Positions 2,641 to 64,000 of a stretch of 64,000 nt of DNA are shown here, piece after piece. Each line of letters opens with the position of its first letter. The stretch's first letter is position 1. The notes beneath the pieces were generated by a model, which saw only the letters and a program-made list of their open reading frames with translations, had not been told where the DNA came from and did no database searches. Source of the stretch: Psammoneis japonica (lineage: Eukaryota). Both the position numbers and the translations under genes were made by a program. Location: positions 44,721 to 108,720 of the forward strand of contig QPGO01000094.1 in assembly GCA_008632985.1 (NCBI GenBank), in the 5' to 3' direction.

Positions 2641-2649
2641 CCGATAGAA

Positions 2650-3330: not shown

Positions 3331-6300
3331 ATGCTCTCTGCTCTAGAGCTGCTCTCTGCTGTAGAGCTGGCTAGAGCCAGAGTTAGCAGCAGAGAGTGGC
3401 ACTGTCTTTCAGAAGGTCGTGACAAAGCACCGTGGGCCTCAGTTGTTTGTTCAACCCCACAGGGCCGTTGTCAGCAAAGGGTGGAAACTGCGCACATGTT
3501 GATGCACTGGCATTGCTGGCCACCACCTCCAGAGTTGTTGGATCACTTGGCAGCACGTGCTGCTCTGGCACAAGCCATTTTTCTTTGTTTGGCACAAGCT
3601 GCACCTGGGTTCTCCAAAAAAGCATTGGGAGTCTTTGGTCGCTGGGTGCTGACTGGACATTTGTGTGATCTCCATCAACCTCCAAAGCTGCCTTGTTGGC
3701 GATGTGGGCTTTCACATTTGCTTCATCAGCACTGCTGCGGGAGCATTTTTCATGTGTGAGCTGAAAAGTTGAGATTGGTGTTTCCAATGACTGACATTGC
3801 AGCTGACCTTGCTGGCCCATCAAAAAAACAATGGACCATTGGAGAGTGCTTGGTGCACATGTGTGCACATGGTCTTGTCAGCTCAAAGCTGAAGTGGAGA
3901 AAGAATGCTGGGTGCCATGCTCTCAGACAATTGGCACCAGCCTGAGCTTGCAAGTCAAAGATCAAAGAGCATGAGCTGCCATGGTGGGTTAGCTGGGGTC
4001 AGGTGTGGCCCTGATTTAAAAAGCTCACATGGCAGACAAGTCTTTAAAAATGAAGTGGTGTTTGCCATTGGTGCCTCCACAGGAAAAGCAACCCCCAGCA
4101 GAGGCAAATTCTTTGTGTGGCTCAGGCAGCTTCTTCTCTTTTGAGTGCTCTTTCAAGGCAGCAGGGCTGCACAGCACATGTGTGGCCAGCCATGACAAGA
4201 AAAAACTCTGCCAACCAACTGCGCAACACATTTCATCTAGCTGCCAATGCATGTTTTCCAACAACCACATCAGAGATTGTGGTGCTCCTCAGAGAAAGCT
4301 TTCCTGTCATCTGCAACCCACCACTTCCAAAGCAAGCTTCTCATGCCAGGTTGTGTGCTTCCAAAGCCAATGATGGCTGACTTTTTGTCTGAATTTGGGG
4401 ACATGACACTCACACTGCCAAAATCACTGCCAAAAGACAAAAGAACTTTGCAAGCATTTTCAAAGTTTGCATCAATGTTGCTTTCAGCTGCCAAGAATTT
4501 GGCTGTGATTTGCTTTCACATCTGGCCATGCTCTGTGTGCAGTGCAGCACAAACCAAGCAAGCAAAGCAGCACTGACACAGTGGCCTGCTCACAATGTTT
4601 TCAATGGATGCTGTTGGTGTGGATTGTGCTGTCTTGTGCTTCCACACATGTGATCATTGGTCTTCTGCTGCAGACAAGATGGCGGCACTTGTGCTCAACA
4701 AGTTTGCCAACCTCAACAAGGGAGGTCTAGATCCAGGCAAATGCCTTCAGTGCAGATTTGTGAAGGACATTTGCTGGTGTGCACTTAACCTCTGAACCTG
4801 ACAGAGTGGTTGTGTTGGCACTAATTTCTTCAACAACATTGGCTCAATCTCTGTCATGCCATCCCATTTCAAGCTCTCAGATGTGGTGTTCAGCCTCATG
4901 CATGAGAACAATTTTTTGCTGCATGGCACACTTTTGGCAAACAGAGGCGCTCAGCCATGCATGTGCTTGTGGCTCCTGGGGTCTTCCAAGCTGCTGCTGC
5001 TCAGTTGTGTGGGACCGGATGCCAACCTTCTGGGTGCACTGCAACCCCAGATGGTCAGGCTTTCACTTTGTGAGCTGTGAAGTGCACATGCTTTTTGGCA
5101 ACTTGTTGGCTGATGTTCCCTGTGCTGTCTCCACCTGTTTTGATGCTGCTTTTCTTGAGAGAGCTGGGCTCATCATTGAGAGTTGTGATGAGCTGGACAA
5201 TGCTCAACAAATGCTTCACTCAGAAGAGCCCAAACACAAGCTTGCAAGCCCAGAGTGATTGAGACAGGGCCCATTGCAATTTGCTTTGTTGGTGGTCAAA
5301 AAGTGAAAATCACACCATGAGCCAGTTTGGTCGCCTCTGTTGCTCAACTTGCCTCCATGCAGCACATGTGGTTTGTGCTCCACTCCACCTTTTTGAACCA
5401 GCTGATTCTGTTTGCCAAACCCAGCCAGCACAAGAAAAACTCTCCAGCTGATTCATGATGTTCTTGATGCTGTTGGCCCAAGATTTGGCAAAGTCTTTTG
5501 GACAAAGTGCACACCTCACTCTGCCAAAAATTCAGCTCAATGCACTTGACAGGGTGCACTGGGAGTTCTTTGCTGCATTCTTGGAGTGGCCTCTGCAGCT
5601 CTGCAGCTGTTTGCTTGATGTGCCCAACTGCAGCATCTGTGACACACATGCTTTGAGACTCCTGGCTCTGTCAAGCCCAGCTTCAACAAACAGTGGTGTT
5701 CAGCAGAGAATGTGTTCATTTGAGTGACATGTCAAATCAGGCCAGCAGCTTCCAAGCATGCCCTCAACCACCCTCTCTTGTTGGCCTTGTCTTCTCAGCA
5801 CAACACAACAACCAGCTGTGGTGCCAGAATCTTTTCTCTTGATGCAGCAGGTCGTGAACTTGAGTGGGCTTTTGCAGATCGTCATGGAAGACAGCAATGC
5901 CAAAAACAGTGTCACAAATGTTGTGATTTGTTCCACTGAATGGCCAACTCTTGCTGCAAGAGCAAACAATTGTTTTTGTGCTGTGCTCTGCTCTGCACAA
6001 AACTTTTGGTCATTGTGTTTCCCCAGCAAGTGTTCCCAGAAGAAGAGAAGAGTGGCAGAACAGCTCAGCTTCTTGATCCTGCCCTGCCTCTTGACTGAAA
6101 AAAAGAAGGTGCATGGGTGCATCATGTCACGCTTGTCATTTGCCAGCTCTGGCACAATGCACACTTCCCAGTGCACCCATTTCAAACAACAGATCTTTTG
6201 AAAAATGCAGTTTGTCCAGTGCTTGAGAGGCTCTCTGGACAACCCCTTGTGCATTTTTTGGCAAAGCTTTGACATTGCAGCTTGCTGTGAGATGTGTGTG

Positions 6301-7179
6301 TGCTCCCTTGCTGTGCTGACAGAATCTTGTTGGCACTTGCAGCACCCTTGTGTTTGTTCTTCAAATGCATCAACTGGCCAGTTGAGCAAGATCACTCTGA
6401 AGCTCTTCCTCTGCAACAGGATGGTGTCTCACTGTGAACTGCTTTCAAACACAGAAGTCAGATCCATCAAGTGTGTCACAAGCTCTTTCTTGGATGCATT
6501 GCAGCAGTGAGCAAGCAACTTGAGATGGGTGTGCCAAAAGTGAGTGGTGCCCATGCCCACCACTGGCAGAGCACACTCTGCAAGAACAGCTGAGCAGCAG
6601 CAACCTCTGGCAGAATGCACTCTACAAGCCCAGCTGAGCAGCAGCAGCAGCAGCTGTTCTCACAAGCACAGAAAATGAGAAGCAACAAAAGCATGCTTGC
6701 TTGTGTGAAGCTTTTTGTCACCCAAGTGCTCTCAGGCCAAGCAGACTCTGCCATCCCCCACCTTTGAAACAAGAATGCAGGCACCAGCTTGCTTGGACCC
6801 TGGTGAGCAATTTTGACAATCTGGGTGATTTTGAATTTTTTGCTTCCACAACCCAACAGAGTTTTGTCAGAGAGTTGGGAGCCATTCCCTCCACTCCTCT
6901 GGGTGGCAGGTGGATGACTCACTCTCACCAGGTTGCACTTGACACTCCAGTGTCTGCCCCAATCTCTGCTGTCTTTGAACACAGACTTCAATCTCTCTGC
7001 CCTTTTGTGCAGGGAAGGGCATTGTTTGATGACCTGATTCTGTGTGCACCCAGAGAGATCCAGGGCACCACAAGAGTTTTGTCATGGCACTGGTGGCAGT
7101 GTGATGGATTTGTGACATCTTCCCAAAGAAACCTTTGGCTGAACCCTTGTGATGTGTGGAGCTGTTCAGGAACTTTGAC

Positions 7180-7490
7180 AGACCCAGACATGTTGAAGAA
7201 AAGATGTCATTGCTCCTGATGTGGAGGACGCGGCAACTCATTGAGTGCAAAGATGTGCCATCGCTGATCCCACCCATTTTGTTGTTCTCACTCTTTGGAG
7301 TGAATCATTTGGTTTGCATGATTGTTGAGTGGTGTCAAGAGGCACCTGATGTTTTGGCAGTTGTTGATTTTCCATTAATTCCCAGGCAAACCACAGCCAC
7401 AGCAGACTGCCAAGACAAGTGCAACCAGTTGCTCAGGAGAGGACCTCAAGGAAGGGATTCCCTTTACAAGGCATTGCCTTGCTGATTCAA
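7180..7490 (+). repeat. Dispersed repeat, copy 1 (copy 2 at ~12760-13080)
   Basis: Shared blocks include ttgaagaaaag, tgttctcactct-ttggagtgaatcatttggtt, gaggcacctg and gttgctcaggaga. Confidence 0.8.
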
Positions 7491-10400
7491 CATTCACACC
7501 AGAGAGTCATGGGTGCCAAGTTTGGTGCTCATCTGCTGGAAGACTGCTGACAACACCAAGATGTCAGAATGCCTGCACAATGAGTGGCAGAGGAGGTGGC
7601 AGATCAAGCTGTTGAGGCCAAGGATGTGGTCCCAGCAGAGGAGATGGAAGTCACAGGTTGCAACCACAAGGGTGACATGTCTTGTGCCAAGTGGTTCAAG
7701 AAGACCAGCAAGAAACTGGAGATTGAGAGGCAGAGCCATGCACAGATGTGAGAGGCAGAAAAGACAATGACCCATCAGTGGACAGCAACAACACATGAGT
7801 GTTGACACCAAAAAATCTGACAGATCAACCTGTTCCAGCCAAAGCAGAAGAAGCACTGCATGACCACCAAGAGAACAGAGGGGAGCATGAATGACCAAGC
7901 CAACACAGACATTGATTCCAAGGAGATTGTCCTTGACAATGGCTCTGGTGCCCTTGGCATGGCAGCAAGCTGGAAACTGGTGCACAATGTGTGACCAGTG
8001 AGGATCAAGATTGACCCATCAACCAATGCCCACACCCCAGATGAAGCCTGAAACAATGCCAGGATGGAGAGACATTGAGCTTGGGTCAGATGATGTGATG
8101 GCCAGTGACCTCAATTTAAAGGATGTGAAGAGCAAGCACTGCATGACTTGAGATGACGGAATTGCAGATGAGTTCCAACTGTTGGGCAAGAAAACTGGGG
8201 ACAAAAGCTGCAGTGTTCAAAGTTGACAACATTGGGCTGCACATGTTTGCACCAAGTTGAAAATTCTTCAACTGTGCCAAAGAGCTGCAAGAGCAAGAAG
8301 AGCACACGAGCATGCTGTTGAAGGACAAGAGGAGAGCCACCACCAAAAAGGAGCACAAGGACACATCCAGAGTGATCGTTCCCACTGCAGAACAAAACAC
8401 CAAGGGCTGCTCTAAGAGAAAGCAGCCAATGCCAAGAAAGCTTTCAGACTGCAGTGTGAGAGATTTTAAACTGTCATTTTCATCAAACCAGGTGAAGAAT
8501 CTGACCATTGCACCTGAAGACATTGACAGAATGGTTGGCCATGTGGGGACCACAGACAGACACACTAAAAGAAAGACCAAGCCTGCACACCCTGCCCATG
8601 AGAGAAATGCTCTGCATTGATGTCATGGAAGCATGTGGAGTCAAGACATTGTGTGCAACAGACAAGACAAGCAAGCACCAATCAAACATGAAGCCAAACA
8701 CCAAGAACTGCACCAATGCACACAAGGCATTGGACGTGGTGATCCTGCAACAGCGCATGACACCAACACATTTAAGATCAACTTCATCAAGAACAACCTT
8801 GAGTTCAAGGATGTGGTGTTGGCGGCCATTGTTGATGGCATGGACCCAGAGCCAATGGTCCATGAATGCCAACCACCATGTTCCTGAAGTGGAGAGGAGC
8901 ATCCAAACTGTTGAAGAGCAAACTCAGGCACCCGTGCACTGTTTGCCACACAAGACAACACTTGCAGCCCACACACTGTTGTGCAACAAAGGAACCTTGT
9001 TCACAACAAACATTTTGAATTCTCCTTTGGAAAATTTGTCCCATCCCATGCTGAGCCCAACCCATCAAACACTGTGGGTGCACATGGCATTAACTGCATC
9101 CACCTGCAACCACACTGCAACACACCAAAGGGCAGACACTGCACCAGATGAACTTGCACATGGGCAAGCTGCTCAATCCTTGCAGGTGTGCCACAATCCC
9201 CGCCCCAACCAACACGCGTGTGCATGTGTGTGTGTGTTTGAAAAAATTGCCATTGCCAAGGACATTGAAGAGCTCAAATGTGCAGGTGAATGTGGGGATG
9301 ACCTGCGTGATGCTGGTTGGACTGCAGGAGTGGACCACAAAGAAAGCAATGCCAAAAGTGACAATGAATGCAGAGAAAATGGTGATGAAACTAGAAGTGC
9401 AACAACCAATGACAAAAATTGTGAAGAAGAAGAAGAAGAAGAAGAAACTGAAGACTCTGGCAATGCATGCGAAGAAGCTCAAGACATCCCAGGCAGCAGA
9501 TGAAAGATCCAGCCCAGCTCAGCATCACAAGGATGATGAAGACTTTGATGAGCAAGATGAAGAACACAAAGAAGAGCAAGAAGAATACAAAAATGCATCC
9601 CATGATGGGAAAACAAACAAGCAGAACAATGCAAAGCAAAACAAACCAGAAGCAGAAGATCTTGTGCAGTGGTGGCACACCACCAGAAACACAAGACAAT
9701 GCAAAGAAAACCAAAAGCATGATTTGCAGGAGTGGCAGATGCCAAAAGAGAGAGACAAAGACAGTGTGAGCTAGAGTGCTGCCATCATTTGTGAACCAAT
9801 GTGAGTCCTAACCTTGAGAATGACATGGAGTGCAACACAGAAGCAGGGGTGGCAATGGCACAGTTCATGTGCAAGATCAATGACTGAGCACAGTCATGAA
9901 AGAGCATTTCCTTTGCCCAACAACAGCTGCCACATGAGGGTCTTAGAGGTTTTGGTCAACAAGGATGTGATGCCTCAGAAAAGGAGATTAGACAGCTCCA
10001 CAACCCAACAGAGCATGCTTTGCACCCACATCAGTTAAAGAAATGTCTCCGACAGAGAGGTTGAGGGCCATGGTTGCCTTGATGTTCCCAGTGGAGAAGC
10101 AAGGCAGTTGTGCAAAAGGATTGGTGGTTTGCAGTGGGAAACCAACCAGGGAATGGCTGGACAAAGACAAGTCAGCCAGTCTGATGGCATCACTGGAAGG
10201 AGTTGTGATGGCAGCCATGTCATTGACTGTGAAGAAGGGCATGGCATTGTGAGTGCAGACATGCCAAACATGTTCACTTGGATGCAGAGTGGGCATTGAC
10301 TCCAACCCATGTGGACCACATGTGGTCAGGAGAAGAGGAAGCAAGTCTTCTGCATCAAGGCATTGGAGCAACACACGGGATGCTTGTGGCAGCCCCGCCA

Positions 10401-11350
10401 TGGCACAAACAATTCCGCAAAGACTTGAAGAAGATTGGGTTTGAGTTCAACCCATGCAATCCTTGCATCACCAGTTGCACAGCAAATGGCAGCACAACAT
10501 CCAATTTGTGTGGATGACCTGCTGTTGAGCCACAAGAACACCCCAAGGTCAATGACCAATTCCTGAGCTGGCTCAACAAGACAAATGGGAGCTGCAGTGA
10601 AGTCATTGCTTGCCACTTGAGGGAAGAGGCATGACTGTCTGGGATGACCCCAGATTTCAGTGAGAAAAGCAAGGTGAAGATTGACATGACTGAATGTGCA
10701 CAGAAGGCAGTGTGCACAGAAGACAATCAACCAGCTCCCAGAGAAAATTAAGAGCACCAATGCTGCCATGACACCAGTGGCAGAGAACCCACTTGAGACA
10801 GGCTGTGCTGGATTGCCGACCAGCAGAGAACAGACATTCCATGCATGGGTGGCCAAAGGACTGTTCCTGTCTGAGAAAGGCTGCATCATGGACATGCACC
10901 CTGCAGCCACAGCATTGCGCATGAGAGTTGGACAACCCGCCAACAGGAGGGGCTGGGAGAAGCCAGTCCATTTCATCAAGCATCTGAACCAGACAAGGAA
11001 CAAAGCTGCTGCACTGAGCACAAAAGACATCCGTGTCATCACAAGTGGTGCACAGATGCATCATTCATGGTGCACCCGGGTTTAAAGAGCCACACCGGAG
11101 GTGCAACAATGATGGGAAACAGTGCGATGTCCAAGTGCCAGAAGCCAAATGCCCAAAGCAGCACTGAGGCCAACCCAGTTGGTGTTGAAGGTGCAATGGC
11201 CATGATCCTGTGGATCAAGTCATTCATGAAAAAACAGGGTCATCCAATCAACAGGAATGTCTGGCATCAGGACAACAAGAGCGCCACTCTGCTGGAGACA
11301 AATGGGTGCAAGAGCACAGGAAAACAATGACCAACAAGCCACTGCTGGGA
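7490..11350 (+). mobile_element. Degenerate Ty1/Copia (CoDi-like) retrotransposon remnant
   Basis: Motifs occur in Copia order: protease-like IVLDNGS (~7925-7950), integrase-like HVPEVERSIQTV (~8877-8915), RT VDDLLLSH (~10510-10533), and RNase H KSHTGG...SSTEA...QDNKSATLLETNG (11085-11310). Many stops and frameshifts. Confidence 0.75.
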
Positions 11351-12759
11351 ATGAAGTTTGTGACATCAGACAAGAATTCTGACACATGTGGGTGAAAGAA
11401 CTCTGTGACCCAGAAGATGTGTTGAGCTGTGTGGCTGAAGCAATCACAGTTGTTCATGTTGCCAGAACCATGATGTCAATTGCTGTTTCCACTGATCCTG
11501 ATGAAGATGATGTGATGCATCTCAAAGACCGGCTTGAGCTGAATGACACATTTGCATGACAGTGGCAGAGGAGCTGTTGGGACAGGTTCACAAAGTTGGA
11601 TGAACTGTTGCTGCTGAGAGAAAAAGAGATCAAGACTTCCAGAATGCACTGGAAGAACACAACGAATGGACACAATGTTGCAGTGAGAAACTGACGACAG
11701 ACCCCTGCATCCGTTGAGAGGCAATCAACACGCATCTGTTGACAATCAAACTCATGGAAGACTGGGCTGCAAGGAAGACTGGCACCCTCTAAGAGGACTT
11801 TGAGAAGAACAAGAAAAAATTTGAATGAACGTGGCATGAGCTGTGGACAGCAAGGCATGAGACAATGGGGCGCATGCACAACAAGTTGAGGCAATGCAGA
11901 TGGAACAAGTGATTTTGTGCCAGCACATGTTTGCCAGCCACTGCTGCGCCAATGATCTCCTCACTTGGCAATGGACAAGAAATGACAGCCATTGTCAAAC
12001 ACCATGCAAGAGTGGCACACAAGACTGAGGAACATTGGCAGATCCTTGGAACATGGGTTTGGGGACAGGGACACTCATGTCACAAGCTGGGATTTTGGCT
12101 GGGTGACTTGCACCTGAGAGAATGCACCGTGGACTCAGTCATGGGATCAATGGGCAACAAATTCTGATTTGCATTTAACACCAACAATGTGCTGTGTGTT
12201 GAATTTGGGGTGCCCCAATGTGGGTTGGACCACTGTGGAACATGCAGACCTCCAAGTGCACCACCAATTGGTCTCTGGAAGCCAAGAAGTGGTGATTCAG
12301 GTTGGTGCAAGGCAACAATGGAGTTGTCTTTGATGCTTTTGAAGTTAGCATGATTGTTCAAGCTTGCAGTTGTTGAAGCAAAGCCCCACAAGGAATGGCC
12401 TTGCCACAACCCAGAGTTCTTTGAATTGAGCTGCAGAATCATCAACAACTGGCTGATGGAAATGATTGGCAACACGCATCCACACAGCATTGCTGTGCAA
12501 GAGAAGATTCAATGAGCTCACACCAAGCATTTCATGGACAGGGTCATGACTGCATTTGATGATTTGCTCAGCCCACCACACATTTGCAGACCAAGTGGAC
12601 ATGACTGTGGAGGCATCAATGTGGCCAACACATTGAATGGACATGTTGTTAACATCCCACTGGGCAGTGCAGATCCAGAACATCCGGGTGAAGTTGGGCA
12701 TGGACAGATCATTGGTGCAAGTGGTGGGAGAGTGTTGGAACAAGTTGTGAGACAGGAAC

Positions 12760-13080
12760 TTTGAGACCCGGATGTCTTGAAGAAAAGAATTTTGTTGCTC
12801 CTGATGCAGAGGACATGGTGACTCATCAAGTGCAATGATGTGCTGTCACCAAATCCCATCTGTTTTGCTGTTCTCACTCTCTTTGGAGTGAATCATTTGG
12901 TTCACATGATTGTCAAGTGGCATCAAAAGGAGGCACCTGCAATCTTGGCAGTCATCATTGAGTTTCCATTGACACCTGGGCAAACACCACCGCCGACACA
13001 GACCACCAACGCAAGTGCAGCGAGTTGCTCAGGAGACCTCACAGGAGGATTCTCTTTGGGAGACATTGACTTGCTGGTTC
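12760..13080 (+). repeat. Dispersed repeat, copy 2 (copy 1 at ~7180-7490)
   Basis: Same colinear blocks as copy 1. Many differences are TG-versus-CA swaps. Confidence 0.8.
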
Positions 13081-13839
13081 AGCAGGAGCTCCACACTGGC
13101 AGATTGCACAGATGCTGTGTTTGGAAATCTCCTTTGTCAATGCAGAGCCAAAACCACCCTGTTGAGTGCACTTTCCTTTCTGCTGTGTCAGCAGTTGGTG
13201 CTTTTGCTTGCTGGAATTTTGTGGCATTGCGCCCAAGCTTGGCACCGCTCTTGTTTGCAACAACATGGCCCCACGGTCAATGTGATTCTGAATTTAAGTC
13301 CTTTCCTCCTGCCCTGGAGCTTTTTGTTGGTCAAGATGGAGAGAGCAACTTCCAAAAAGAGGCATCATTCAGCAAACATGGCATCTCCTGATGAGTGGGA
13401 AGTGGTTGACAAAGTTTGTCATGTGCAGTCAGTCATTGCTCAGCGCAAAGTTCAAAGACAGCCAATCTGTTTCCCAGCCCCCCCCACGCAGCGGAGTGGG
13501 AATTCTGCCCCTCTTGTGGGGACCGCATGGGTGGGTTGAAGTGACGAAATAATGTGCTCTTCGAGTTAAAGAGCAAGCACTGGCAGAGTAAGAAGGTCTT
13601 GGCATTTCCCGCCTTTTCGCGATCCGCACTCCAAGTGCCGCAACTCTTGAGAAGCATTGTTCCCTCGTCTTGCGCACAATACTGAGATGAGATCTAATGG
13701 CTCTTCAGTTCTGATTCTCCGTCGAGACAGAAGAAGTTTGACGTGATACAAGCTCTCTAGGGCCCTAACGATGATTCATACGTAGCTTTCGGGAGCAACT
13801 TGATCTGAAAAGTTTTTGATACAATAAACATTACATTAC

Positions 13840-32204: not shown

Positions 32205-32390
32205 GGTGACAGAGGATGATCACGGATGAAAATTCTAGTAGAACGAGAGTGATGGCGTTGGTGATGTCGATAGGAAGCTGACGAATATAAGAGTCGTGGA
32301 GAGGCGCGGTGGCAACGGGTATGGCCATTGGCAATACGTACGGTATCTCTATTTCTGGTTCATGGTGTTCCACGAAAAAGTGCCAAGTTG

Positions 32391-33976: not shown

Positions 33977-34199
33977 AGTTGACGAATGTTGCTGCCTTGG
34001 ACCGTATCGAGATTCGTCGCCGTCGACAGTGAAAAACACAGGAAGGCTACTTCGTCCGATGATCCTACTTTTTGAAGAGAACAGGGTCTAGAATATACCT
34101 TTTTTCTACGCTGATCAACACATTGGGGCGTGTGTTTTTCTTGGTATTGGTACGATGTCCTGAGCGCGTGCTGATATGTTCAAGTTATCAAAAGGTGTT

Positions 34200-35854: not shown

Positions 35855-37541
35855 CTATTCCACCTGCCCCTGAAGGATGGTGGAACAAATCTTGGCACGG
35901 CCAAAGTTCCCGGACGCACCTAGAATCTTGTCCTGGTCAAAGTGTCCTTCGCGGACATCATACCCCAACGACAAAAAGTAGGCATACATGCAGACGAATA
36001 CACCGCAATCAAATCCATTGTGCTGCTTGGGGATGTCACGACTCTCTACAATAGACCAGTCGGACGGGAGTTTCTCGTCATTGTGCTGGAGACGATGTTC
36101 CTGCTCGAGGAACTCCAACAACTTCTTGGCGTACGACTTGCATGGACATCCGCACGAATCGTACCCTGCGACTACGTGAGCTTCGAAATCAACAACCAAC
36201 AGAGCCCAGTGGACATTGCTTTTGTTGATTGGGACCAACAGGCGGTCATATTCAAACACCCCCTTGCCCGGCAGTTTCTTCAGTTGACGACGCACTTTGA
36301 TGTTCTTGACGGACCCGTCCTCTACAAGCTTTGGCAAAAAGTATGAGTTGACGAAGTGGCATTTCTTGGGAACCTCGGCACCGTGCTTTTTTGCACGCAT
36401 GGACAGCAGACGGAAAAAATCAGCAATGATGATGTCGTTGAGATATTCTCCGGCTTTCAAGGTGGCAAGGTCTTTCGCGCATACAAATGGGGCAACAAGA
36501 AGTGTTTCATCAGCAGCAGCTGCTGCTGAGTGTTGCAAATACTGGCGATACTCGTCGTCTGGGATGCCTGCATCCAACAACGCACCAAGTTCATTGGCAG
36601 TCGGGTCCGGATCCGGTTCCACTGCGGCGGGAGCTTCCTTGTCAACATCCTTCTTGCCCTCCACTGTGACGGGAGTGTCCCGCTTGCTCTCGAGGATTTT
36701 CAAACGAGCCCCAAGCTCGTCGACCGTTGACTCCAAGAAATCCAAATCAAGACGACTCAGAATCTCAGCGATTTTTTTATCCTGTGCATCGGCACGATCG
36801 TCAAGGGCCTGCAAGAGCATTGCCTGCTCATCAAGACTCGCCTGATGTCCTGTCGTAGTGTTCAACATCATTCTAATCATCTCTTCGTGCCGGTCCAAAC
36901 AGGCGGCATGGGTGGAAAGATTAGGCCGGCCGGTGCCTTTGCCAAAAACATTGGAGTACGCCATCAGAGCGTCCAGCAGTTTGTTCAGGTTCCAAGTGTG
37001 CGTCATCTTCTTTCCGACATCTGCACCAAACAATGGCAAACGTGTCAGTAATGTGGCAAATGTCTCAGCATACAAAAAAGGATGACACTTGTGTCACAAA
37101 AGTTTACATACCAAATTGTTTCGAAATCACAGAGTAAAAGAACTTTGACAAAGCCGTCTCGGCTGTGGGGGAAAGCTTGCCCTTGTTCTTGGACTTCTTT
37201 GCATGGAACTCTTTCAAAGTGCTAAGGAGCTCCTTATTTTCCGCAGAAACAACAGCCTTGAAGATGTGAAGCTTGGCTCGCTCTTGGTCGATGGGGCTGT
37301 CATTGGCCAAGGTCCACTTGCGCACTCCACCGTGTGCAAAGTAGACTTGCTTCGTTTCAGGGTCCACAGCATGGCCACACTTGAAGGTGGCGGGAAAATA
37401 ATCAACCTTATTTCCATTCTCATCCAACAGGGGGGCGGCAAAATAGGAATAGGCTGTCTGCGACGCCAGCTTCTTCTTGGGTAGGGCCCTATCTTTTTCA
37501 AACGGTCCTCGGCTTCCTTTTTCTGAGCCTCCTCACTTTCG
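35855..37541 (-). pseudogene. Ulp1/SENP-like (C48) protease gene, 3' part, disrupted by the Copia insertion
   Basis: YLNDIIIADF, VPINKSNVHWAL, YDS and QHNGFDCGVF catalytic motifs. GT-AG intron at ~37111-37021, frameshift near 37485. The frame continues beyond the element at 44821-44897. Confidence 0.8.
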
Positions 37542-37830
37542 AGTCACGAGTCAACAACCGAGTCTGATTCACGGATGACGCTCCCGGTCATGGATCTCTT
37601 CTTCCGGAAGAAATGTCCGTTGAGTCTTATAGCGATAGTAATCGGAGTGACACACACGACCGTTAGGTCATAATGTCATCTCCAATCCCTCGTGAGATCT
37701 TCTCACAATTCGTATCTTTAGCGTGTCTTATTGTCCCAAAACCCACTTCTTATCATCCTCTGTTGTATTGTACAACCTCAAGAGAGTCCTGAACTCTCCA
37801 TCCTACACAGTGTGTTGTTGTATCCCAAGT
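37542..37830 (+). repeat. 5' LTR (289 bp)
   Basis: Ungapped match to 44527-44815 with 10 mismatches. Confidence 0.96.
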
Positions 37831-37842
37831 GGTTATGACCCC
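37831..37842 (+). promoter_or_regulatory. Primer binding site, half-tRNA-Met type
   Basis: GGTTATGACCCC lies immediately after the LTR and resembles the GGTTATGGGCCC PBS of Drosophila copia. Confidence 0.65.
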
Positions 37843-38009
37843 AATCCACGCACCGGTGTCAACTCGCAACGGAGTTGCTGCCACTCGTTCGTCTCGTTAC
37901 AGACGACATCCCATCCAACGGCGATCTTCCGTGTCGCAATCCAACGGCGATCATCTATATCGCAATCCCTGCCTACTAATCGATCCTCTATGTCGAATCA
38001 TCCACAACC

Positions 38010-41000
38010 ATGTCCATGGATCCTGATGCCGTCAAGATGTTTGCTGAGGCCTTCGCCAAGATGCAAACCTCGACCAACCCTCCTACGATCCCCACGCCGC
38101 TTCGCGGCGGCATCCACCACTCTCATGGAGTGTATCTGGGCGGTTCGGCTCTGAACAACAAGTGCGAGCAGACCGACACCCGCACCCACCGTTTTGCCTC
38201 GCAACGTCGCCATCCGAAAGCTGTCGACTCTATCGAGCGATCTCTCAGAGATCAACTCGCCTCGGCAACCACATCCAAGTTCAACGGCCAGATTGAGTTA
38301 TCCAACGGTTCCAGTGCTGAACTGGACAAAGACCACTTCGTCAAGACCATTCAGGACTTAATCGAGTCGCACGGACAAGAAACTTTCTGCCATCTCAAGA
38401 AAGTCGACGGCAAGGTCGTGTGCCTTTTTGATCACCTTCACGCCTTCACTGTCAAAGACCTTGAGAAGGAATGTGAGACCCGTGTGGCGGCTGCAGGTGA
38501 CGAAGGCTACGATCAGCATGAAATCGATGACATCGGCTCATCACAACTCATCGTCAAGTCGCGCATCACCGAAACCTTCCGTGAAAAGATTGAAACCAAG
38601 TTTAATCACTTGAAGAACTACAAGGATCTTCCGGGGTCTGTCTTATTTATGATGGCTCTGGACACCTGCAACGCCAGTGCTCTGGTTGACGTCAAGGCCG
38701 CCAAGGAAAAGTTGAACGACTTAACTCTGGACAACTGCCCTGGCGAAGACTGCACCGAGCTTGCAACCGAAACTCTGCGCCTGCTCAAGATCATGCAGAC
38801 GGACCATGCGTCACCAGTTGAAACTGGGTCTGCTGTTTTATCTGGGGCATCAAAGACATCCTCCGAGTTTTTCAATCGTCAAGTTTTTGCCAAGCTCGAC
38901 TCCGTCAAGCGCTTGGAGCGCAAATGTCGCTTGCGTGACCCGGCAGAAGTCCCCAAGGATGCCGACCATGCGGATCTTGGACCTGTTGGCCTCATTGGCT
39001 GGATCACCAAGACCCATGGCGAACTCATTAGCGATGAAGATTGGCCTGCCTTAGCAGCCAAGCTCCCGGAATCCAACCTCGCCAAGGACCACTCGGAAAA
39101 GCATTGCTGCGGCTGTGGCAAGGTTGGGTGCACCAAACGCACGTGTCCCACCTGCAAGGAGCAATGCAAGAAGGACAAACAGGGCACGGCGGACAAGTCC
39201 AAGGATGACCCTCCGGATGTCCGGAAGACCAACCCTTCCAAGAAACCACCCAAGCCGGCCTGGCGTTTTGTTCACAAAGGTGCCACTGTCACCGACGAGA
39301 AAGGCACGACCTGGCACTGGTGCGACAAGTGTGTGAACAAGGAAACGGGCAAGAAGGGCATGTGTCAAGGCCACTCCTCCGCTCAACACACCGGGAAACC
39401 GTCTGTCAACACCGACACCGCCGCTGCGGCAAATTTATCTGCTGTGTCGGACCCTTCTTCGGGCATTCCTTTTGGTCCTCCCAAGCAGACGACGTCTCCG
39501 CCTACAGACGAACCCTCTGACCCTAACGAGCTGGTTTATTGCGGCATGTGGTGTGCACCAGTGGACGACTCTTTGAGTTCGACTCCAGTGACTACGTCCG
39601 TCTCGTTCACTCCTGCTCCATCGGCCGAGAGGGAGACTACCGTGGCCAAACCCGCTCCCATCTTGGTTGAAACGGTTGCCCCCGAAGACGCTGACGATTA
39701 CTCCGAGTGCTCCGACGCTCACTCCTCTTTTGACTCCCTACCGTCAGCTATCGAGCTATTTCCGGCCCACACCATGCACGAGATTCAAAATCCGGACGTG
39801 TTTTATGACACGATCGCAACTCACGTGGAAGGTCTGTCTGACGACGTGTTAGACGATCTCGTTTCCGGGGCAAGCATCCTACTTTTCGAAGACAGCTACG
39901 AGCACTTACCTCCAAGCACCCAGTATCGCGGTTTCGAATTTTACGATCCCGAACCCCAAGATGTTGATTGTGGCGTCGAGGAGGCAACGCCGAGCTCTCG
40001 TCTTGAGCTTTTCTGGAACTTCTTGAAGCTCCGAGTTTTCTGGCTGTTTGCTATGTTCTGGGAAACGGTACTACACATTTGCTGTGCGCCGATTCCTGTC
40101 TTACCTCGTCGTATACGCCGTAAGGCATTCATCCCAACCATTCACGGTTTCCCCTCTACCTGGATGGTGCTGACTGGAGCTATCATGGTCTGGGCGTCTG
40201 TTTTCAACGGTCAGCCTCCCACGTATCCATTCTCCAATGTCCCTTCTCGCTTCTCCAAAGCTAGCTCTCAGGTCTACTCGATCATTGAAGAACTAGACGA
40301 TAAGACAGTGTTAGATCCGGGCAGTTTGGTGGAATACAACAAGATCAAGGCGCGACAAGTGCTTACCGAATTTGTGGAGCGCGATCCGGACCATCATCTG
40401 AGCAAGAAATTCACGCAGCTCTGGGAGAACGACGTATGCTCTTCCCCAGGCCGCTGCATCCCTCCAGCTCTAGAAGACCTCGAGTCCTACTTCGACACCT
40501 ATGATTCAGAGGAAGCCCTCGACCCGCTCCCGACCGAGCCGAGCCACTACTTTGATGCGGTTGAGGAGCTCTCTCCGGACTATTTTCGTTTCGACGAGCT
40601 GTCCACCAAGTTTGGTTTCGTGGACACCACTCCATGGCAAGACCCTGTGAAGCTTCTCCAGGCAGCTACTGACGGAACCGAAGCCTATCCTACTCATACC
40701 TCTATGCAGGTATTGACGGGCCAACGCTCTTTAGCACAACTCGCCGCCGACCCGCAAGCTTTGCTGAGCCCAGCACATGAGCGCCACACCGTCACATGCG
40801 ACACTGGCGCATCCCTAGCCATTGCTTACGATGAAAATGACTTTGTCGGACCTCTGACGATCCCTGATGGCCCATTGAAGCTTGGGGGTCTAGCAAAGGG
40901 CTTAACCATCGCCGGCATCGGACCCGTCTCCTGGGTTTTCCACAACGAGGACGGCTCTGAGCTCGTCGTCAAGACGATGGCGCACCATGTGCCTCAGGCC

Positions 41001-44000
41001 GGACAACGTCTTCTATCCCCACAACGCCTCTACAGCAAGGAACATGGCGTGACAGGAAAACATGAGGGAGACGAGGACTCATTTCGAGTGCATGTTGATG
41101 GCGTCGGTTCGCTCAAGGTCGCGTGCGCGTCAAATCACTTGCCGGTTGCGTCTGTGACCAACGGGGTGGCACCCGCTCCTCAAGTCAATCTGTCTGTGTT
41201 GCACGAGGACAACCAGAACCTCACCACCGGTCAGAAGCTCCTTCAAGAATGGCACTTCAGGTTTGGTCACCTGAACATGCCACGCATCCAAGGCCTGCTT
41301 CGGGCCGAACCTTTTCTCCGACCCAAATTCAAGCATGCTTCGCGTTGCGACATTCCGCGGTGCGAGGTGTGCGAACATGCCAAAGGACATCGCCGAACCC
41401 TCAAGTCTGCCAAACATGCGGCTACTCCAGAGCGTGAGGGTGCTCTTCGAGCCGAGCATCTACGTCCAGGCCAAGCCGTCAGCGTGGATCACTTCGAATC
41501 CCGTCTCCTCGGCCGAACCTGCGACTCCTGCGGGAAGGCCTCGTCCCAGCAATACAAAGGAGGCTGCATTTTTGTGGATCATGCCTCCGGTTACCTGCAC
41601 ATTGAACACCAACTTGGTTTCTCTGCTGTGGAAACGGTGCGCGCGAAGCAAGCGTTTGAGAAGCACGCGATGGACCACGGAGTCATCATCCAAGAATTTC
41701 TTGCCGATTCTGGCGCTTTCAAGGCCAGTGCTTTTGTGCAACACATGCGACAGCACGAACAACGTCTACGTTTTTGCGGAACCAACGCCCACCATCAGAA
41801 CGGCGTCGCAGAACGCGGCATTCGCTCCGTCTCCAACATGGCGAGAGCGATGCTCCTCCACGCATCCATCCGTTGGAAGGGGGGCANNNNNNNNNNNNNN
41901 NNNNNNNNNNNNNNNNNNNNNNNNNNNNNNNNNNNNNNNNNNNNNNNNNNNNNNNNNNNNNNNNNNNNNNNNNNNNNNNNNNNNNNNNNNNNNNNNNNNN
42001 NNNNNNNNNNNNNNNNNNNNNNNNNNNNNNNNNNNNNNNNNNNNNNNNNNNNNNNNNNNNNNNNNNNNNNNNNNNNNNNNNNNNNNNNNNNNNNNNNNNN
42101 NNNNNNNNNNNNNNNNNNNNNNNNNNNNNNNNNNNNNNNNNNNNNNNNNNNNNNNNNNNNNNNNNNNNNNNNNNNNNNNNNNNNNNNNNNNNNNNNNNNN
42201 NNNNNNNNNNNNNNNNNNNNNNNNNNNNNNNNNNNNNNNNNNNNNNNNNNNNNNNNNNNNNNNNNNNNNNNNNNNNNNNNNNNNNNNNNNNNNNNNNNNN
42301 NNNNNNNNNNNNNNNNNNNNNNNNNNNNNNNNNNNNNNNNNNNNNNNNNNNNNNNNNNNNNNNNNNNNNNNNNNNNNNNNNNNNNNNNNNNNNNNNNNNN
42401 NNNNNNNNNNNNNNNNNNNNNNNNNNNNNNNNNNNNNNNNNNNNNNNNNNNNNNNNNNNNNNNNNNNNNNNNNNNNNNNNNNNNNNNNNNNNNNNNNNNN
42501 NNNNNNNNNNNNNNNNNNNNNNNNNNNNNNNNNNNNNNNNNNNNNNNNNNNNNNNNNNNNNNNNNNNNNNNNNNNNNNNNNNNNNNNNNNNNNNNNNNNN
42601 NNNNNNNNNNNNNNNNNNNNNNNNNNNNNNNNNNNNNNNNNNNNNNNNNNNNNNNNNNNNNNNNNNNNNNNNNNNNNNNNNNNNNNNNNNNNNNNNNNNN
42701 NNNNNNNNNNNNNNNNNNNNNNNNNNNNNNNNNNNNNNNNNNNNNNNNNNNNNNNNNNNNNNNNNNNNNNNNNNNNNNNNNNNNNNNNNNNNNNNNNNNN
42801 NNNNNNAAAAGCAAAAAGATCCCGATGTGCCTTCTTCACACGAGGCCATGCGCAGCGATGAATCCGAAGAGTGGGTCAAGGCCATGAAAATCGAAGTTGA
42901 CGCGCTGCTCCACCGACGTGCATGGGAAATGGTGCCAAGAACGGCAGATGTGAATGCACCACCCGGCACATGGGCTTTCAAACTCAAACGACTCCCGGAT
43001 GGTGCGCCCTTGAAGTACAAGGCACGACATTGTGTTCGCGGCGATTTGCAGAAACACGGGATCGATTTTTTCGAGACCTGCGCGCCGGCAGTGCAATGGT
43101 CGTCCATGCGCCTTCTCCTCACCACGGTGCTCAAGGAAGGTTGGACTACACGTCAAGTGGACTGTGCCACAGCCTTCTGCCAAGCTGACATCAAGGAGAA
43201 GGTCCATGTAGAGCCTCCAAAGGGTTTCCAACCAAAATCGGGCGCCGACCTGGTGCAAAATTATTGAAAGGCCCACACGGCCTACGCCAGTCTCCCAAGT
43301 GCTTCTGTGAAAAGCTGAGGGACGGATTGCTCGAAAGAGGATGGATTCAATCCGCCATTGACCCTTGTCTTTATTTCAAAAAGGGTGTGCCATGTGTGGC
43401 ACATGTTGACGATGCCGTGTTCGCCGGCGCATCGGCCCAAGCCTTGGAAGCAGAGATTGCCAAGTTGGGCATTTCTGACGATGAGCAACGCCATGTCTTT
43501 GATCTACGTGATGAAGGCGAAGTCGGCAACTTTCTAGGGATCAAGATTCAAAAGCTCGAAGACGGCCGATTCCTCCTGACCCAACCCGGCCCAATTGAGA
43601 AAGTTCTCCGCACCGCACAGATGACTGAGTGCAACGGCGCACCTGCTCCTGCCTTGCCTGCTCCTGCTGGCAGCGATGCCGACGGGCCACCGTTCGAAGA
43701 GCCTTATGACTGCCGTTCCGTGGTCGGCATGCTGATGTGTCTAGCGTCCAACAGCCGCCCGGACATTGCTTGCGCGACCCATCAAGTCGCACGGTTCTCC
43801 TGCGCACCCAAGGCCTCCCACGCTGCGGCTGTCAAGCGCATTCTTCGTCACCTGAAGGATGCGGCCGACAAAGGACTTATCCTAACTCCAACCGCCGATC
43901 AACGACTCGACTGCTATGTTGATGCTGATTTCGCGGGACTCTTCAGTGTTGAAGATGGACAAGATCCCACGTCTGTCAAGTCACGTGCGGGACATGTCAT

Positions 44001-44490
44001 TTATTATGCTGGATGTCCGATTGTCTGGGTGTCCAAGTTGCAGACCCTCGTCGCACTCTCTACCATGGAAGCCGAGCATGTCGCCCTCTCCCAAGCGATG
44101 CGTGATCTCATCCCCCTTCGCGAGATCGTGAAGGAAATCAACGCGCTCGTTTTCGGACAGCCGGACAGACAGACCGACATTTCGACACATTCGAAGGCTT
44201 TCCGACACGCCAACGACGGAACTGAGGATTCTCCCATTGACTCCACTAACCTCCCAGCATCCGTTGTGTACGAAGACAATGCTGCCTGCCTCCAATTCGC
44301 CCGCATGCCAAAATTATCCCCACGAACCAAGCACATCGGCATTCCCTGCCATTGGTTTCGCACTAAAGTTGAGGCTTTGGAGATCAAAATTGAGCCTGTG
44401 AGCTCAGCTGCACAGCTTGCTGACCAGTTTGCTAAAGGATTGACTGTTGATCTATTCCGCACTGGTCGCAAAGCCCTCATGGGCTGGTGA
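38010..44490 (+). pseudogene. Copia gag-pol polyprotein with Tyr->Cys/His damage
   Basis: Zn knuckle-like CCGCGKVGCTKRTC, protease DTGAS, integrase WHFRFGH...CEVC with VSVDHF/LADSG/NGVAER, RT KARHCVRGD and HVDD, RNase H YVDADFAG...STMEAE...YEDN...LADQF. Frameshift at ~43257. An assembly gap lies inside. Confidence 0.93.
41887..42806. other. Assembly gap (920 N)
   Basis: Run of N within pol, between integrase and RT. Confidence 1.
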
Positions 44491-44513
44491 CTGACAGTTC
44501 TCCTTCTCTTTTC

Positions 44514-44526
44514 GGTTGAGAGGGAG
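44514..44526 (+). promoter_or_regulatory. Polypurine tract
   Basis: ggttgagagggag directly before the 3' LTR. Confidence 0.8.
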
Positions 44527-44815
44527 AGTCACGAGTCAACAACCGAGTCTGATTCACGGATGACGCTCCCGGTCATGGATCTCTTCTTCCGGAAGAAATG
44601 TCCGTTGAGTCTTACAGCGACAGCAATCGGAGTGACACACACGACCGTTGGGTCATGATGTCATCTCCAATCCCTCGTGAGATCTTCTCACAATTCGTAT
44701 CTTTAGCGCATCTTATTGTCCCAAAACCCACTTCTTATCATCCTCTGTTGTATTGTACAACCTCAAGAGAGTCCTGAACTCTCCATCCTACACAGTGCAT
44801 TGTTGTGTCCCAAGT
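44527..44815 (+). repeat. 3' LTR (289 bp)
   Basis: Ungapped match to 37542-37830, followed by the TSD TTTCG. Confidence 0.96.
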
Positions 44816-44820
44816 TTTCG

Positions 44821-44897
44821 TCGGCTTTCTTGGCCTGTAAGAAGGCACGAATCGCCTCTGCTGTGTGGTTGGATGGCTGTTCCGTTACCGCCGGCAT
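44821..44897 (-). pseudogene. 5' part of the interrupted Ulp1-like gene
   Basis: MPAVTEQPSNHTAEAIRAFLQAKKADE joins in frame to SEEAQKKEAEDRLKKIG when the element and one TSD are removed. Confidence 0.7.
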
Positions 44898-61849: not shown

Positions 61850-62790
61850 ACTTGTTTAGCTTTGCAATCCTCGCAGGACAAGTGTGCTTGGTGAACCCAA
61901 CCGCACCACATCTGCAACAATGTTTTGTGGTGTCAGAGCCCTCAGGAGTGAGACTCGACTCAGGTGAACTGGCTGCCAAGGCAGGCCAGTCTTCATTGCC
62001 AACAAGCTCGACATGGGTCTTGGCAATCCAGCCAACAATGCCAACAGGGCCCAAGTCTAAACAGTCCACATGGTTTGGTGCCTCAGCTGGGTCACAGAGA
62101 TGGCACTTGCATTCCATCTTCTTGACCTGGTGAAGATCTTGGATGCCGTCTTGGATGCTCAGTTAAAATGACACAGAGCCTGTGTCATCCGGCAGCATGC
62201 AGTCCATCTGCATGATCTTGACCAGACACAGAGTTTTGGTCACAAGCTTGGTGCAATTGTGGCCAGGGTGGGACTCAAGCAACAAAGCCTTGAGCTTGTT
62301 TTTGGCAGACTTAACTTCAACAAGAGCACTTTTGTCACAACCATCCAGGACCATCATCAACAACACTGACCCTGGAAGATCTTTGAAGTTCTTTGCATGG
62401 GTGAAGTTCACTTTCATCTTCTCGCAGAACACTTCTGTGATGCAAGTCTTGTCAAGCAGTTGTGAGAGACTGATGTCATCTGTCTCATGCTGCTTGTAGC
62501 CTTGGTCACCAGAAGCCTTGGAATGAGTCTTGTGTGCTCCTTCTCAGGGTCGCTGACAGCAATGGCATGAAGACAGACAAATGGGAACATGACCTTGCTG
62601 TTAGATTTCTTGAAATGGCAGAAGGTTTCCTGCCCATGTGACTCAATGAGGTCTTGGATGGTCTTGACAAAGTCTTCCTTGTCCAGTTTGGCACTTGGAC
62701 CATTGGATGGCTGGATTTGACCATTGAACTTTGAAGCAGTTGATGAGGTGACTTGTCCACAAAGGGTTGGCTCAATGGATCCAACCTGAC
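61850..62790 (-). mobile_element. Eroded gag fragment related to the Copia element at 37542-44815
   Basis: KFNGQIQPSNGPSAKLDKEDFVKTIQDLIESHGQETFCH, KDLPGSVLLMMVLD and DLGPVGIVGWIAKTHVELVGNEDWPALAA align to gag at 38210-39170. Confidence 0.9.
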
Positions 62791-64000
62791 TCTGCTGACA
62801 ACAAATGATCATCATCAGGACAATCCTTCCTCACATGCCCAACCTCATTGCATTTCCAGAATTTGATCTGCTTCTCCTTGTTCTGCACAAAACTTGCATC
62901 CTCAGGTTTCTTCTTGTTCATCCTGCAGGCATCCAACACCTGCAGTGCCTCCTTGCTCAAATTGGGACAAATGTCAAACCCCAGTGAAAACTGTTGATGC
63001 AGATCTTTCAAATGACATGCCAATGTTCCTTGGTGCCATCAGCATCACCGCTGACAACTTGTTCCTTTCTTCTTTGTTCTGGGTGCACCATCATCAGCAT
63101 CCTTGCCAAACCCATCTTCTTTCTTGTGATGAGTGGCCTTTGCACATTGTCAAACAATTGCATTGAATGCCTGTGCCTTCTGTGTCTTCTGTGTCACACT
63201 CTGTTTTGCATGGTGACCACATTGCTTGCCCCAGATTGCCTTGTCCTTCTCCAACGTGGTGTCTGCCAATGGATGCTCTGATGCTTTTGGCTTGCTCTCC
63301 TGCCTCAGAGACACCAATGTCTTCATCTCCACCAGCCCAAACATTCTTCCAAACACACTTGCTGATCTTCCTTGTGGCTTTTGTGCAGCCATCTGCCTGT
63401 CATCCCAACTTGGCAATGGTGTCATGCACCCAATCCTTTTTAAATCTTTTGTTCTTCTGCACTCAGCTGTGTCCTTGCCCATGTTTTCTGGGACTTGTGT
63501 TGGAGCATCACAGCTTGCCCACAGTCTTGTGCTCAGTCTCGCCAACCCCAACACAACCTTGCCTCACCCTCTTTCAGCAGATCTTTGGCAGCTCTTCTTC
63601 AACAGGAAGGCCCTCAAAAGATTGTTTCTCTGCCTTCATCCAGCCAGCTTGTTTGCCACAATCTTCCAAGAAAAGAAGTGCTTTTGGATTCCTGTCAACT
63701 TCCCAGCCTGCCTTCACCTTTGGATTCCTGATGCCTTCCCAGCCTTTAAATGTCACCACTCCTTTGGGTGTCATGCTGTGACTTTTTGGCTTCTGTGTTG
63801 GAGTTTTGTGGCTGGCTCACCAAGGAGTTCTTGGAAGTTGGTTGGGGATGCAGGGGGTCTGATGTCCATTGTGGCTTGTGACATCTGACAGGTCTGCAGA
63901 GGGCATTGGCAGGCAACATGCTTGGGTGCAGAGAGGCAAAGACATGGGTGCTTTCATTGTTTGGGATGAAGTGGATGGGGTTGGGGAGGTGGCAGACAAT
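62790..64000 (-). repeat. Eroded TE remnants, TpA- and CpG-depleted
   Basis: Degenerate zinc knuckle FWKCNEVGHVRKDCP at ~62820-62865. Same composition as 3330-13550. Confidence 0.65.

Follow-up and report, generated by a model that had tools for sequence, protein, structure and literature searches.

To our knowledge, the known hypermutation defences against mobile DNA, repeat-induced point mutation (RIP) and APOBEC editing, all deaminate cytosine, and the only adenine editor among them, ADAR, has RNA as its substrate. The DNA adenine deaminases we know of are solely laboratory-evolved TadA variants, and we know of no natural enzyme of this kind that is directed at DNA and targets transposons. 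Here we analyse a 64,000-nucleotide stretch of the Psammoneis japonica genome (GenBank assembly GCA_008632985.1, contig QPGO01000094.1, positions 44,721 to 108,720 of the forward strand; hereafter the window), which carries a Ty1/copia retrotransposon, hereafter the focal element, whose two long terminal repeats (LTRs) differ at inferred TA dinucleotides and nowhere else.

Transposon DNA in this window has undergone very frequent A:T>G:C transitions that are confined to TpA and occur on both strands, while adjacent host genes have been spared. The process destroys Tyr codons and makes no stop codons, and dead copies keep long open frames. In old relics it has come near to completion, and these relics have also lost CpG (CG>TG/CA). 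A preliminary description had proposed a both-strand mutator that converts TpA to CpA or TpG in transposons, and four bodies of evidence support it: the Tyr codons of the focal pol gene, those of a PIF1-like helicase gene, reads from other copies of the family, and TA-free relic blocks. We are highly confident that the phenomenon and its TA>CA/TG direction are well established within this window.

The LTR pair

The focal element is a Ty1/copia LTR retrotransposon, with an RVT_2 domain downstream of integrase, 289-bp LTRs and a 5-bp TTTCG target-site duplication (Table 1). Pfam gave two RVT_2 matches (E = 1e-19 and 4e-9) and, upstream of them, one to gag_pre-integrs. The direct repeat at its ends (37541-37830 and 44526-44815) is 290 nt long, the LTRs proper being 289 bp, and its two copies align without gaps and with 10 mismatches (96.6% identity).

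All ten mismatches are transitions (3' LTR coordinates 44615, 44621, 44624, 44650, 44657, 44709, 44710, 44798, 44799 and 44807). TA in the 5' LTR corresponds to CA in the 3' LTR at 44615, 44621 and 44624, and to TG at 44650, 44657 and 44807; at two further sites, 44709/10 and 44798/9, TG in the 5' LTR faces CA in the 3' LTR. Eight of the 16 inferred TA sites are altered and eight are common to both LTRs. No change was found at the 14 shared CG sites or the 15 shared AA sites, and neither transversions nor indels occur over the 289 bp. The ratio of T>C to A>G changes is 5:5. Our recomparison matched the preliminary description exactly in the ten positions, the 289-bp length and the placement of every difference on an inferred TpA, and reproduced its counts (three TA->CA, three TA->TG and two TG/CA sites; 8/16 TpA; 0/14 CpG; no transversions or indels).

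This concentration on TA is far from random. Were ten substitutions scattered over 289 positions, all ten would land in the 32 TA positions with p ~3e-10, and a direction-free null that admits any transition making or breaking a TA still gives p ~2e-7. TA and CG sites differ in the same sense (8/16 versus 0/14; Fisher test, p = 0.0027). Expressed as a rate, there are 10 changes per 32 TA copies, against 0 at 514 other positions and 0 at 28 CpG copies. Error-prone synthesis of the Pol eta type, one of the mechanisms first put forward, fits these numbers poorly. Pol eta mutagenesis at WA mutates A at TA and AA and yields many transversions; here 0/15 AA sites changed and none of the ten LTR differences is a transversion.

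An N gap splits the focal element, and one concern was that its two sides might belong to different loci. We read them as one insertion because the TTTCG duplications at the two outer ends are identical and because a minus-strand open frame of 191 amino acids runs through the reconstructed empty site once the element and one copy of the duplication are removed.

Direction of change

Conserved codons in the reverse transcriptase (RT) and ribonuclease H (RNase H) region of pol show which state is ancestral. In a first comparison, with 40 relatives at 52-60% identity, just one of 9 conserved Tyr residues survives in the focal RT-RNase H, the others being 5 His, 2 Cys and 1 Ile, and 5 of its 11 conserved Thr are now Ala. 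Other residue classes are kept at 77-100%, Arg at 12 of 14. A wider comparison used a consensus query with 11 Tyr columns and 80 metagenome relatives. At these columns the focal copy reads CHHHCHYHH-C, with nine His or Cys and one Tyr kept, whereas the relatives have 0-3 His or Cys each (three in a contig we call L079, two in one other locus, and none or one in the rest).

These losses have a narrow cause. Among 45 changed conserved columns of RT-RNase H, 14 are explained by a single TA>CA/TG transition, counted from a TA in the ancestral codon or codon junction, and none by a CpG-type change; the 14 divide into 7 T>C and 7 A>G. A conserved His, Gln, Cys, Trp or Arg turned in one step into Tyr or a stop occurs neither here nor in the PIF1-like open reading frame (ORF) described next. 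Since conserved codons were lost without single-step events in reverse, the ancestral state was TA and the change TA>CA/TG. The earlier claim that the loss of conserved Tyr codons in pol fixes the direction thus holds (9/11 His or Cys, against 0-3 in each of the 80 relatives).

A second element

The same damage is found in a PIF1-like helicase ORF near the start of the window, which belongs to a second, unrelated and probably mobile element. None of its 7 conserved Tyr is kept (6 Cys, 1 His), while all conserved Phe, Gly, His, Asn and Trp are. Among its 45 changed conserved columns, single transitions of TA type account for 13 (A>G in 11, T>C in 2) and a CpG-type change for one. Because this ORF has lost its Tyr codons, the process is not limited to the focal copia family. 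It probably extends beyond reverse-transcribing elements, the type of the PIF1 element being known from the helicase domain alone. The dominant strand differs between the two elements: changes in the PIF1 ORF are mainly A>G on the sense strand, and in the copia RT-RNase H all four purine-preceded Tyr codons have become His (T>C).

Between the TA-poor PIF1 ORF and the first relic block lies a TA-rich spacer (2544-3384; 32-36 TA per 500 bases), and three states thus abut within less than 1 kb.

Other copies of the family

We compared the contigs of one sequencing run, X1, which may be the assembly's own sample, with positions 42807-46000 at 80% similarity. Summed X1 contig depth is ~2000-8000 on the focal element against 61.7 in single-copy flank, from which it follows that the family is present in high copy. 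By context, the 40 variant places listed, out of 114, comprise 21 of TA type, 7 of CpG type, 7 other transitions and 5 transversions.

Five LTR differences (44615, 44621, 44624, 44650 and 44657) are among the listed places. At the first three the family carries T in 97%, 56% and 40% of depth; at the last two it carries A in 71% and 73%. Family reads at these places have T or A where the focal copy has C or G, in support of the TA>CA/TG direction. As a check on the mismatches themselves the reads go part of the way: the TA state is present in family depth at these five positions, but from a run that may be the source of the assembly.

Coding sites tell the same story. At 43592 the focal copy has CCA (Pro), where T in 95% of family depth gives the conserved Leu. 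At 43993/4, where the focal codon is CAT (His), T stands at the first base in ~45% of depth and G at the second in 47%, a split which indicates that one Tyr codon was altered on opposite strands in different copies. At 43644/5 the focal TG is matched by CA in 41% of family depth; the conserved Thr at this position requires an ancestral A, so the ancestor was TA and not CG. This equivalent site backs the preliminary reading of the two TG/CA sites in the LTRs as ancestral TA. Among the listed places, family copies have TG where the focal copy keeps TA at 43263, 44003, 44006, 44316 and 44737, and other copies carry TG where the focal copy keeps CG at five sites in 44298-44359.

Could the LTRs differ because one was converted by another copy? 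This is unlikely. At 44614, adjacent to the variable 44615, both focal LTRs have A, whereas C makes up 99% of family depth. The sharing of so rare a variant marks the two LTRs as true sisters.

The opposite direction can be judged from the same data. On that account, CA and TG would be ancestral, and a RIP-like or methylation-driven C>T process would have mutated the 5' LTR and most family copies to TA. The LTR pair alone is symmetric in this respect, and its two TG/CA sites could derive from CpG. For coding sites the idea is refuted: 27 of them (Tyr, Leu, Thr and Ile codons) had an ancestral TA, with no reverse events, and the conserved Thr at 43644/5 rules out a CpG ancestor there. Heavily mutated relics, moreover, are TA-free instead of TA-rich. 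We regard the reverse direction as having next to no chance of being correct.

Relatives from other sources

Our sample comprised this one window and 80 foreign metagenome loci. In these related loci TA observed/expected is mostly 0.5-0.9 and Tyr is kept. Eleven LTR-like pairs among them, which sit at contig ends and may be assembly overlaps, differ by a mixture of transversions and CpG transitions, with TA-type changes making up 3 of 44 differences. Given these ordinary spectra, we rejected the idea that the signature is a general property of this transposon clade.

Two metagenome contigs depart from the norm in instructive ways. L079 (1789 bases) encodes a copia RT-RNase H with TA observed/expected at 0.04 and CG at 0.20. 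Apart from one stop, its frame is nearly undamaged; of the five TAs that it still has, four lie in conserved Tyr codons, and the Tyr of the catalytic YVDD motif is Cys. It looks like a lineage that was purged of TA and CG under selection. Either the phenomenon or a response to it is present in this environmental metagenome contig. The second contig, L040 (5315 bases), is a related copia with CG observed/expected at 0.03, TA at 0.47 and all conserved Tyr kept. Since it is depleted in CpG only, CpG loss and TA loss are separable.

L079 also raises the question of whether the focal pattern is the work of selection on lineages against UpA and CpG in transposon RNA, or else an artefact, whether from sequencing or assembly errors at modified bases or from a chimeric join at the N gap. 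That the gap splits the element and that X1 may be the source sample leave room for the latter, and L079, which purged TA and CG yet kept its conserved Tyr codons, for the former. A chimera is hard to square with the identical target-site duplications and the frame that runs over the empty site; both LTRs carry variants rare in the family, and a modification artefact would hit the two alike. Selection, for its part, leaves the loss of catalytic Tyr (9/11 and 7/7 columns) and the differences between sister LTRs unexplained. We give artefact and selection together very little credence.

Saturated relics

Two blocks of the window, at 4-13 kb and 62-64 kb, have TA observed/expected of 0.02-0.17 and CG of 0.03-0.36 at a GC content of 47-49%. 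Genes in the window, by comparison, have roughly 11-34 TA and 24-39 CG per 500 bp, with TA observed/expected at 0.5-0.7. Both blocks consist of complex sequence rather than simple repeats. Run X1 contains 82% of the sampled words of block 1 (4000-13000). Pfam searches of 27 long frames in the blocks returned no credible domain, and a tblastn search of the window with the focal polyprotein found nothing beyond a gag fragment in block 2. The many long frames are a by-product, since the process removes TAA and TAG and makes no stops.

The gag fragment in block 2 is that of a related copia. Its nucleotide identity with the focal gag is 68%, rising to 86% when transitions are ignored. The TA- and CG-free state of the block begins within ~20 bp of the end of gag homology, and beyond this point the flank has normal TA and CG density. 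In the relics the borders of TA and CG erasure coincide within about 60-170 bp.

The loss of CpG in relics runs in the usual C>T direction, as Arg codons reveal. Of the 12 Arg residues of the focal gag, nine are replaced in block 2, six by Cys and three by His, and the block has one Arg left; Arg to Cys or His corresponds to CGN>TGN/CAN. The direct repeat in block 1, which is possibly an LTR pair, has 16 sites at which CA and TG are swapped (8 each way) and 50 concordant CA/TG sites; a further 33 transitions and 18 transversions separate the copies. The swaps are what one would expect had a palindromic ancestral TA or CG been resolved independently in each of two related copies.

The young focal copy shows the order of events. 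Its CpG is intact (CG observed/expected 0.97, LTR 0/14, Arg 12/14, no CpG-type events), the PIF1 ORF is slightly affected and the relics are emptied, from which it follows that TA loss came first and was at least several times faster than CpG loss. The earlier statement that CpG is spared is accordingly right for the young focal copy but not for the saturated relics, which have lost CG too. We read CpG loss as a separate, slower process, which 5-methylcytosine (5mC) deamination or a RID/DNMT4-like activity would fit. The alternative is a single enzyme with a strong preference for TA behind both losses.

A different kind of cause would be a heritable base modification placed symmetrically at TpA in silenced transposon chromatin (5-hydroxymethyluracil, 5-formyluracil, a J-like base or a modified A) that mispairs and lets TA decay to CA or TG, much as methylated CpG decays to TG or CA. 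Integrated copies would again be the substrate, but through decay of a mark and with no dedicated deaminase involved. In dinoflagellates 5-hydroxymethyluracil prefers TpA, and 5-substituted uracils mispair with G. Like CpG, TpA is palindromic; both strands are affected, the changes are specific to transposons, and the same relics have lost TA and CG with nearly common borders. Two observations argue against such a mark. In the LTRs of the young copy TA loss is 10/32 and CpG loss 0/28, and a symmetric, passive mark does not predict strand bias (11:2 in favour of A>G in the PIF1 ORF; His at the four RTAY Tyr codons of copia, where R is purine and Y pyrimidine). We consider this explanation rather unlikely, though a serious contender.

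Sequence context

The TAs that survive share a context. YTAR makes up 33 of the 37 survivors in the two saturated blocks, against a baseline of 16% in non-transposon sequence of the window and 21% in 77 relatives (p ~1e-21 and ~1e-19). In the PIF1 region, 27 of 40 surviving TAs are YTAR and none is RTAY. TAs with a 5' purine make up 17 of 101 survivors in the focal interior and 46% in relatives, which are of lower GC; the depletion is present in each of three sub-regions. These surviving classes are no more than suggestive of a strand asymmetry in the focal element.

The simplest rule is that the preferred change strikes A in 5'-TAY-3', which read from the opposite strand is T in 5'-RTA-3'; it is a preference and not an absolute rule. 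YTAR, which is largely spared, lacks this motif on both strands. Eight of the ten LTR events fit. The preliminary description had named TpA as the target, and every LTR change does lie at TpA; the context is wider than that, however, with TAY/RTA favoured and YTAR resistant.

This context bears on ADAR-like A-to-I editing of double-stranded transposon RNA, later fixed by retrotransposition. Such editing yields clustered A>G and T>C transitions, as is the case in animal retroelements and RNA viruses. ADAR tolerates a 5' U or A and favours a 3' G. Here a 5' T is strictly required (0/15 shared LTR AA sites changed), and the favoured 3' pyrimidine and the resistance of YTAR are the opposite of the ADAR preference. 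T>C and A>G changes lie mixed together at spacings of tens of bases, sister LTRs differ, and an element with no recognised reverse-transcription step is affected. RNA editing is therefore a very improbable source of the pattern.

Editing at the stage of complementary DNA (cDNA) deserves more weight. A single-strand DNA adenine deaminase with a TAY preference, acting in the manner of APOBEC3, would give copies that are born mutated and whose LTRs may differ. The distribution of LTR changes agrees with this: the five T>C all lie in the 3' LTR at plus-strand RTA, which is TAY on minus-strand cDNA, and the two changes found in the 5' LTR alone turn A to G at TAT. Sense-strand RTA is depleted in the focal element (the 17 of 101 survivors above), and borders coincide with element ends. 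The PIF1-helicase element, however, bears the same damage with no recognised reverse-transcription step, RT-RNase H has as many A>G as T>C changes (7:7), and one replication cycle would hardly give near-total erasure of TA and CG on both strands or the 8+8 swaps. We think cDNA-stage editing improbable, without dismissing it.

Features of the window

Table 1. Features discussed in the text, in window coordinates
Feature	Coordinates	Strand	Remarks
PIF1-like helicase ORF	762..2540	+	Helicase domain (Pfam); compared with 38 relatives
Relic block 1	3385..13549	.	0-5 TA and 0-8 CG per 500 bp; CA/TG ~1.6-2.35x expectation
Direct repeat in block 1	7167..7525; partner 12753-13124	+	~360 bp, 5.6 kb apart
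Target-site duplication TTTCG	37537..37541 (left copy); 44816-44820 (right copy)	.	Identical 5-bp copies
5' LTR of focal Ty1/copia element	37542..37830	+	Direct-repeat comparison; TA kept at 6/8 differing sites, TG at the other 2
gag-protease-integrase open frame	37980..41886	+	Stop-free, enters N gap; few RTA sites survive
N gap within focal element	41887-42806		920 bases
RT + RNase H of focal element (Pfam RVT_2)	42809..44487	+	Two frames, frameshift near 43190-43267
3' LTR of focal Ty1/copia element	44527..44815	+	None of the 8 differing TA sites keeps TA; each is CA or TG (against inferred TA, T>C at 5 and A>G at 3)
gag of related copia in block 2	61875-62785	-	tblastn with focal polyprotein
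Relic block 2	61876..64000	-	Runs off window; nearly TA/CG-free

The focal element lies inside a minus-strand open frame (37104-37541 and 44821-45132). Since the 191-residue open segment is restored when the element is removed, a coding exon was probably interrupted by the insertion. In one family contig an additional C follows 43255, where the focal RT switches frame, and the focal copy may have a 1-base deletion there. To the right of the element, a contig of a second run, X2, omits 107 bases at 45823-45929 that begin with GT and end with AG. This makes it probable that X2 derives from RNA and that the gene there is spliced and expressed. The focal element is barely covered by X2 and a third run, X3, a result that says nothing on its expression.

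Elsewhere in the window, a diverged duplication (33461-34108 and 57054-57763) consists of host-like sequence, is ~84% identical, has ample TA and CG and lacks the signature. Reduced to purines and pyrimidines it had seemed rich in transitions, but its copies differ by 37 transitions and 51 transversions, as ordinary divergence would give, and we rejected it as a further case. Offset self-matches mark a tandem array at 59096-59685 with a period of roughly 90-180 bases. A minus-strand ORF at 30489-32219 contains an RMKL-like methyltransferase domain (UPF0020), with a weak N6_N4_Mtase match, and probably encodes an RNA methyltransferase.

Mechanism and significance

Taken as a whole, the account we favour, with some confidence, is a transposon-directed DNA mutator that would act on integrated copies, most plausibly by adenine deamination. 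The mutator would be directed at repeated or mobile DNA, as the sharp borders at element ends and the high copy number of the family suggest. It would act on integrated genomic copies, a step to which sister-LTR differences, swap sites, the non-retro element and saturation all point and which we consider fairly likely in its own right. The preliminary description had placed the action after integration, and that remains likely, but the LTR pair alone is insufficient to establish it because editing of cDNA intermediates could also make LTRs differ. Action would come in strand-coordinated episodes, as suggested by a dominant strand that varies from element to element.

As for chemistry, a TadA/ADAT2-like or other deaminase-fold enzyme would deaminate DNA adenine to hypoxanthine, which would be read as G at the next replication. 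TadA deaminates A in a UAC context. The A>I activity of TadA, ADAT2-3 and TadA-derived adenine base editors after U or T (for TadA, then followed by C) resembles the TAY preference seen here, although the natural substrate of TadA and ADAT2-3 is tRNA and not transposon DNA. By analogy, one could go further and propose a RIP-like defence with opposite chemistry, in which a natural DNA adenine deaminase, aimed at repeats or mobile DNA, turns TAY to TGY on either strand in this organism and at least one other source, that of a metagenome contig; we put this forward as a speculative possibility that we doubt at present.

Several points weigh against these proposals. The deaminase would be postulated from sequence patterns. 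The asymmetry between the LTRs, with all five T>C in the 3' LTR and both 5'-LTR changes A>G at TAT, is also predicted by editing of single-stranded cDNA intermediates, and sharp borders without leakage into flanks fit copies mutated at birth equally well. The context rule has exceptions in 2 of 10 LTR events (tTAg>tTGg and aTAa>aTGa) and 3 of the 7 T>C events in RT-RNase H. L079, by keeping its Tyr codons, suggests that selection on lineages also shapes TA- and CG-free sequences, and the block 1 repeat is no more than a possible LTR pair. The scope of the comparison belongs here too: a single window with foreign metagenome loci, 40 of 114 variant places, and a run that is possibly the assembly's own sample.

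If the proposal is true, a natural A:T>G:C editor of DNA would be known for the first time, and with it a new class of defence or mutagenesis outside fungi and animals; biotechnology might gain a lead to a natural DNA adenine deaminase. Read as deaminase defence, the process would wipe out Tyr codons and TA-containing signals, and transposon lineages would respond by purging TA, as in L079. It would also account for CA/TG-rich stretches, free of TA and CG, that are opaque to homology annotation. For annotation there is a warning: long open frames in TA-free regions arise as a by-product.

Comparison with known systems

The full-text literature that we searched, in one library, yielded no account of transposons hypermutated from TA to CA or TG. 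Nor is such a process mentioned in PMC2806351 or PMC9998398, according to term searches of both.

RIP of ascomycetes, which depends on RID and DIM-2 and on a premeiotic stage, is the nearest parallel in design. It too keeps within sharp limits to DNA that is repeated or mobile, makes transitions in a dinucleotide context, acts on both strands in an apparently strand-coordinated way, and leaves saturated relics beyond the recognition of homology searches. RIP acts on duplicated sequence and mutates both copies with limited spread; in the window, the focal family is of high copy number (depth 2000-8000 against 61.7) and borders are sharp. The chemistry is opposite: RIP converts C:G to T:A at CpA, whereas A:T>G:C occurs here at TpA (27 coding events, no reverse). 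RIP relics are rich in AT and TpA, and those in the window are TA-free at 47-49% GC. The process here makes no stop codons, and C>T is found solely at CpG in old relics. A RID-related DNMT4 is present in many diatoms, where its function is unknown according to PMC9998398. Its relevance could be confined to the CpG half of the loss.

Cytosine deamination at methylated CpG explains that same half, CG>TG/CA in relics (9/12 Arg to Cys or His in block 2). It cannot yield TA>CA/TG, and the CpG of the focal copy is intact while its TA is heavily altered.

ADAR hyperediting likewise produces clustered A>G and T>C transitions in repeats. It differs in its RNA substrate, its restriction to animals and its neighbour preferences, and it cannot split sister LTRs or mutate a non-retro element.

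APOBEC3 editing of cDNA is comparable in that it deaminates in a specific context, disables retroelements and may leave behind integrated copies that are hypermutated, and the asymmetry of the focal LTRs would fit an analogous event at the cDNA stage. APOBEC3 changes C to U, seen as plus-strand G>A, strongly on one strand and in retroelements only. The focal element of Psammoneis japonica instead carries T>C and A>G in equal numbers (5:5 for the LTRs, 7:7 for RT-RNase H), and the damage extends to the PIF1 element as well.

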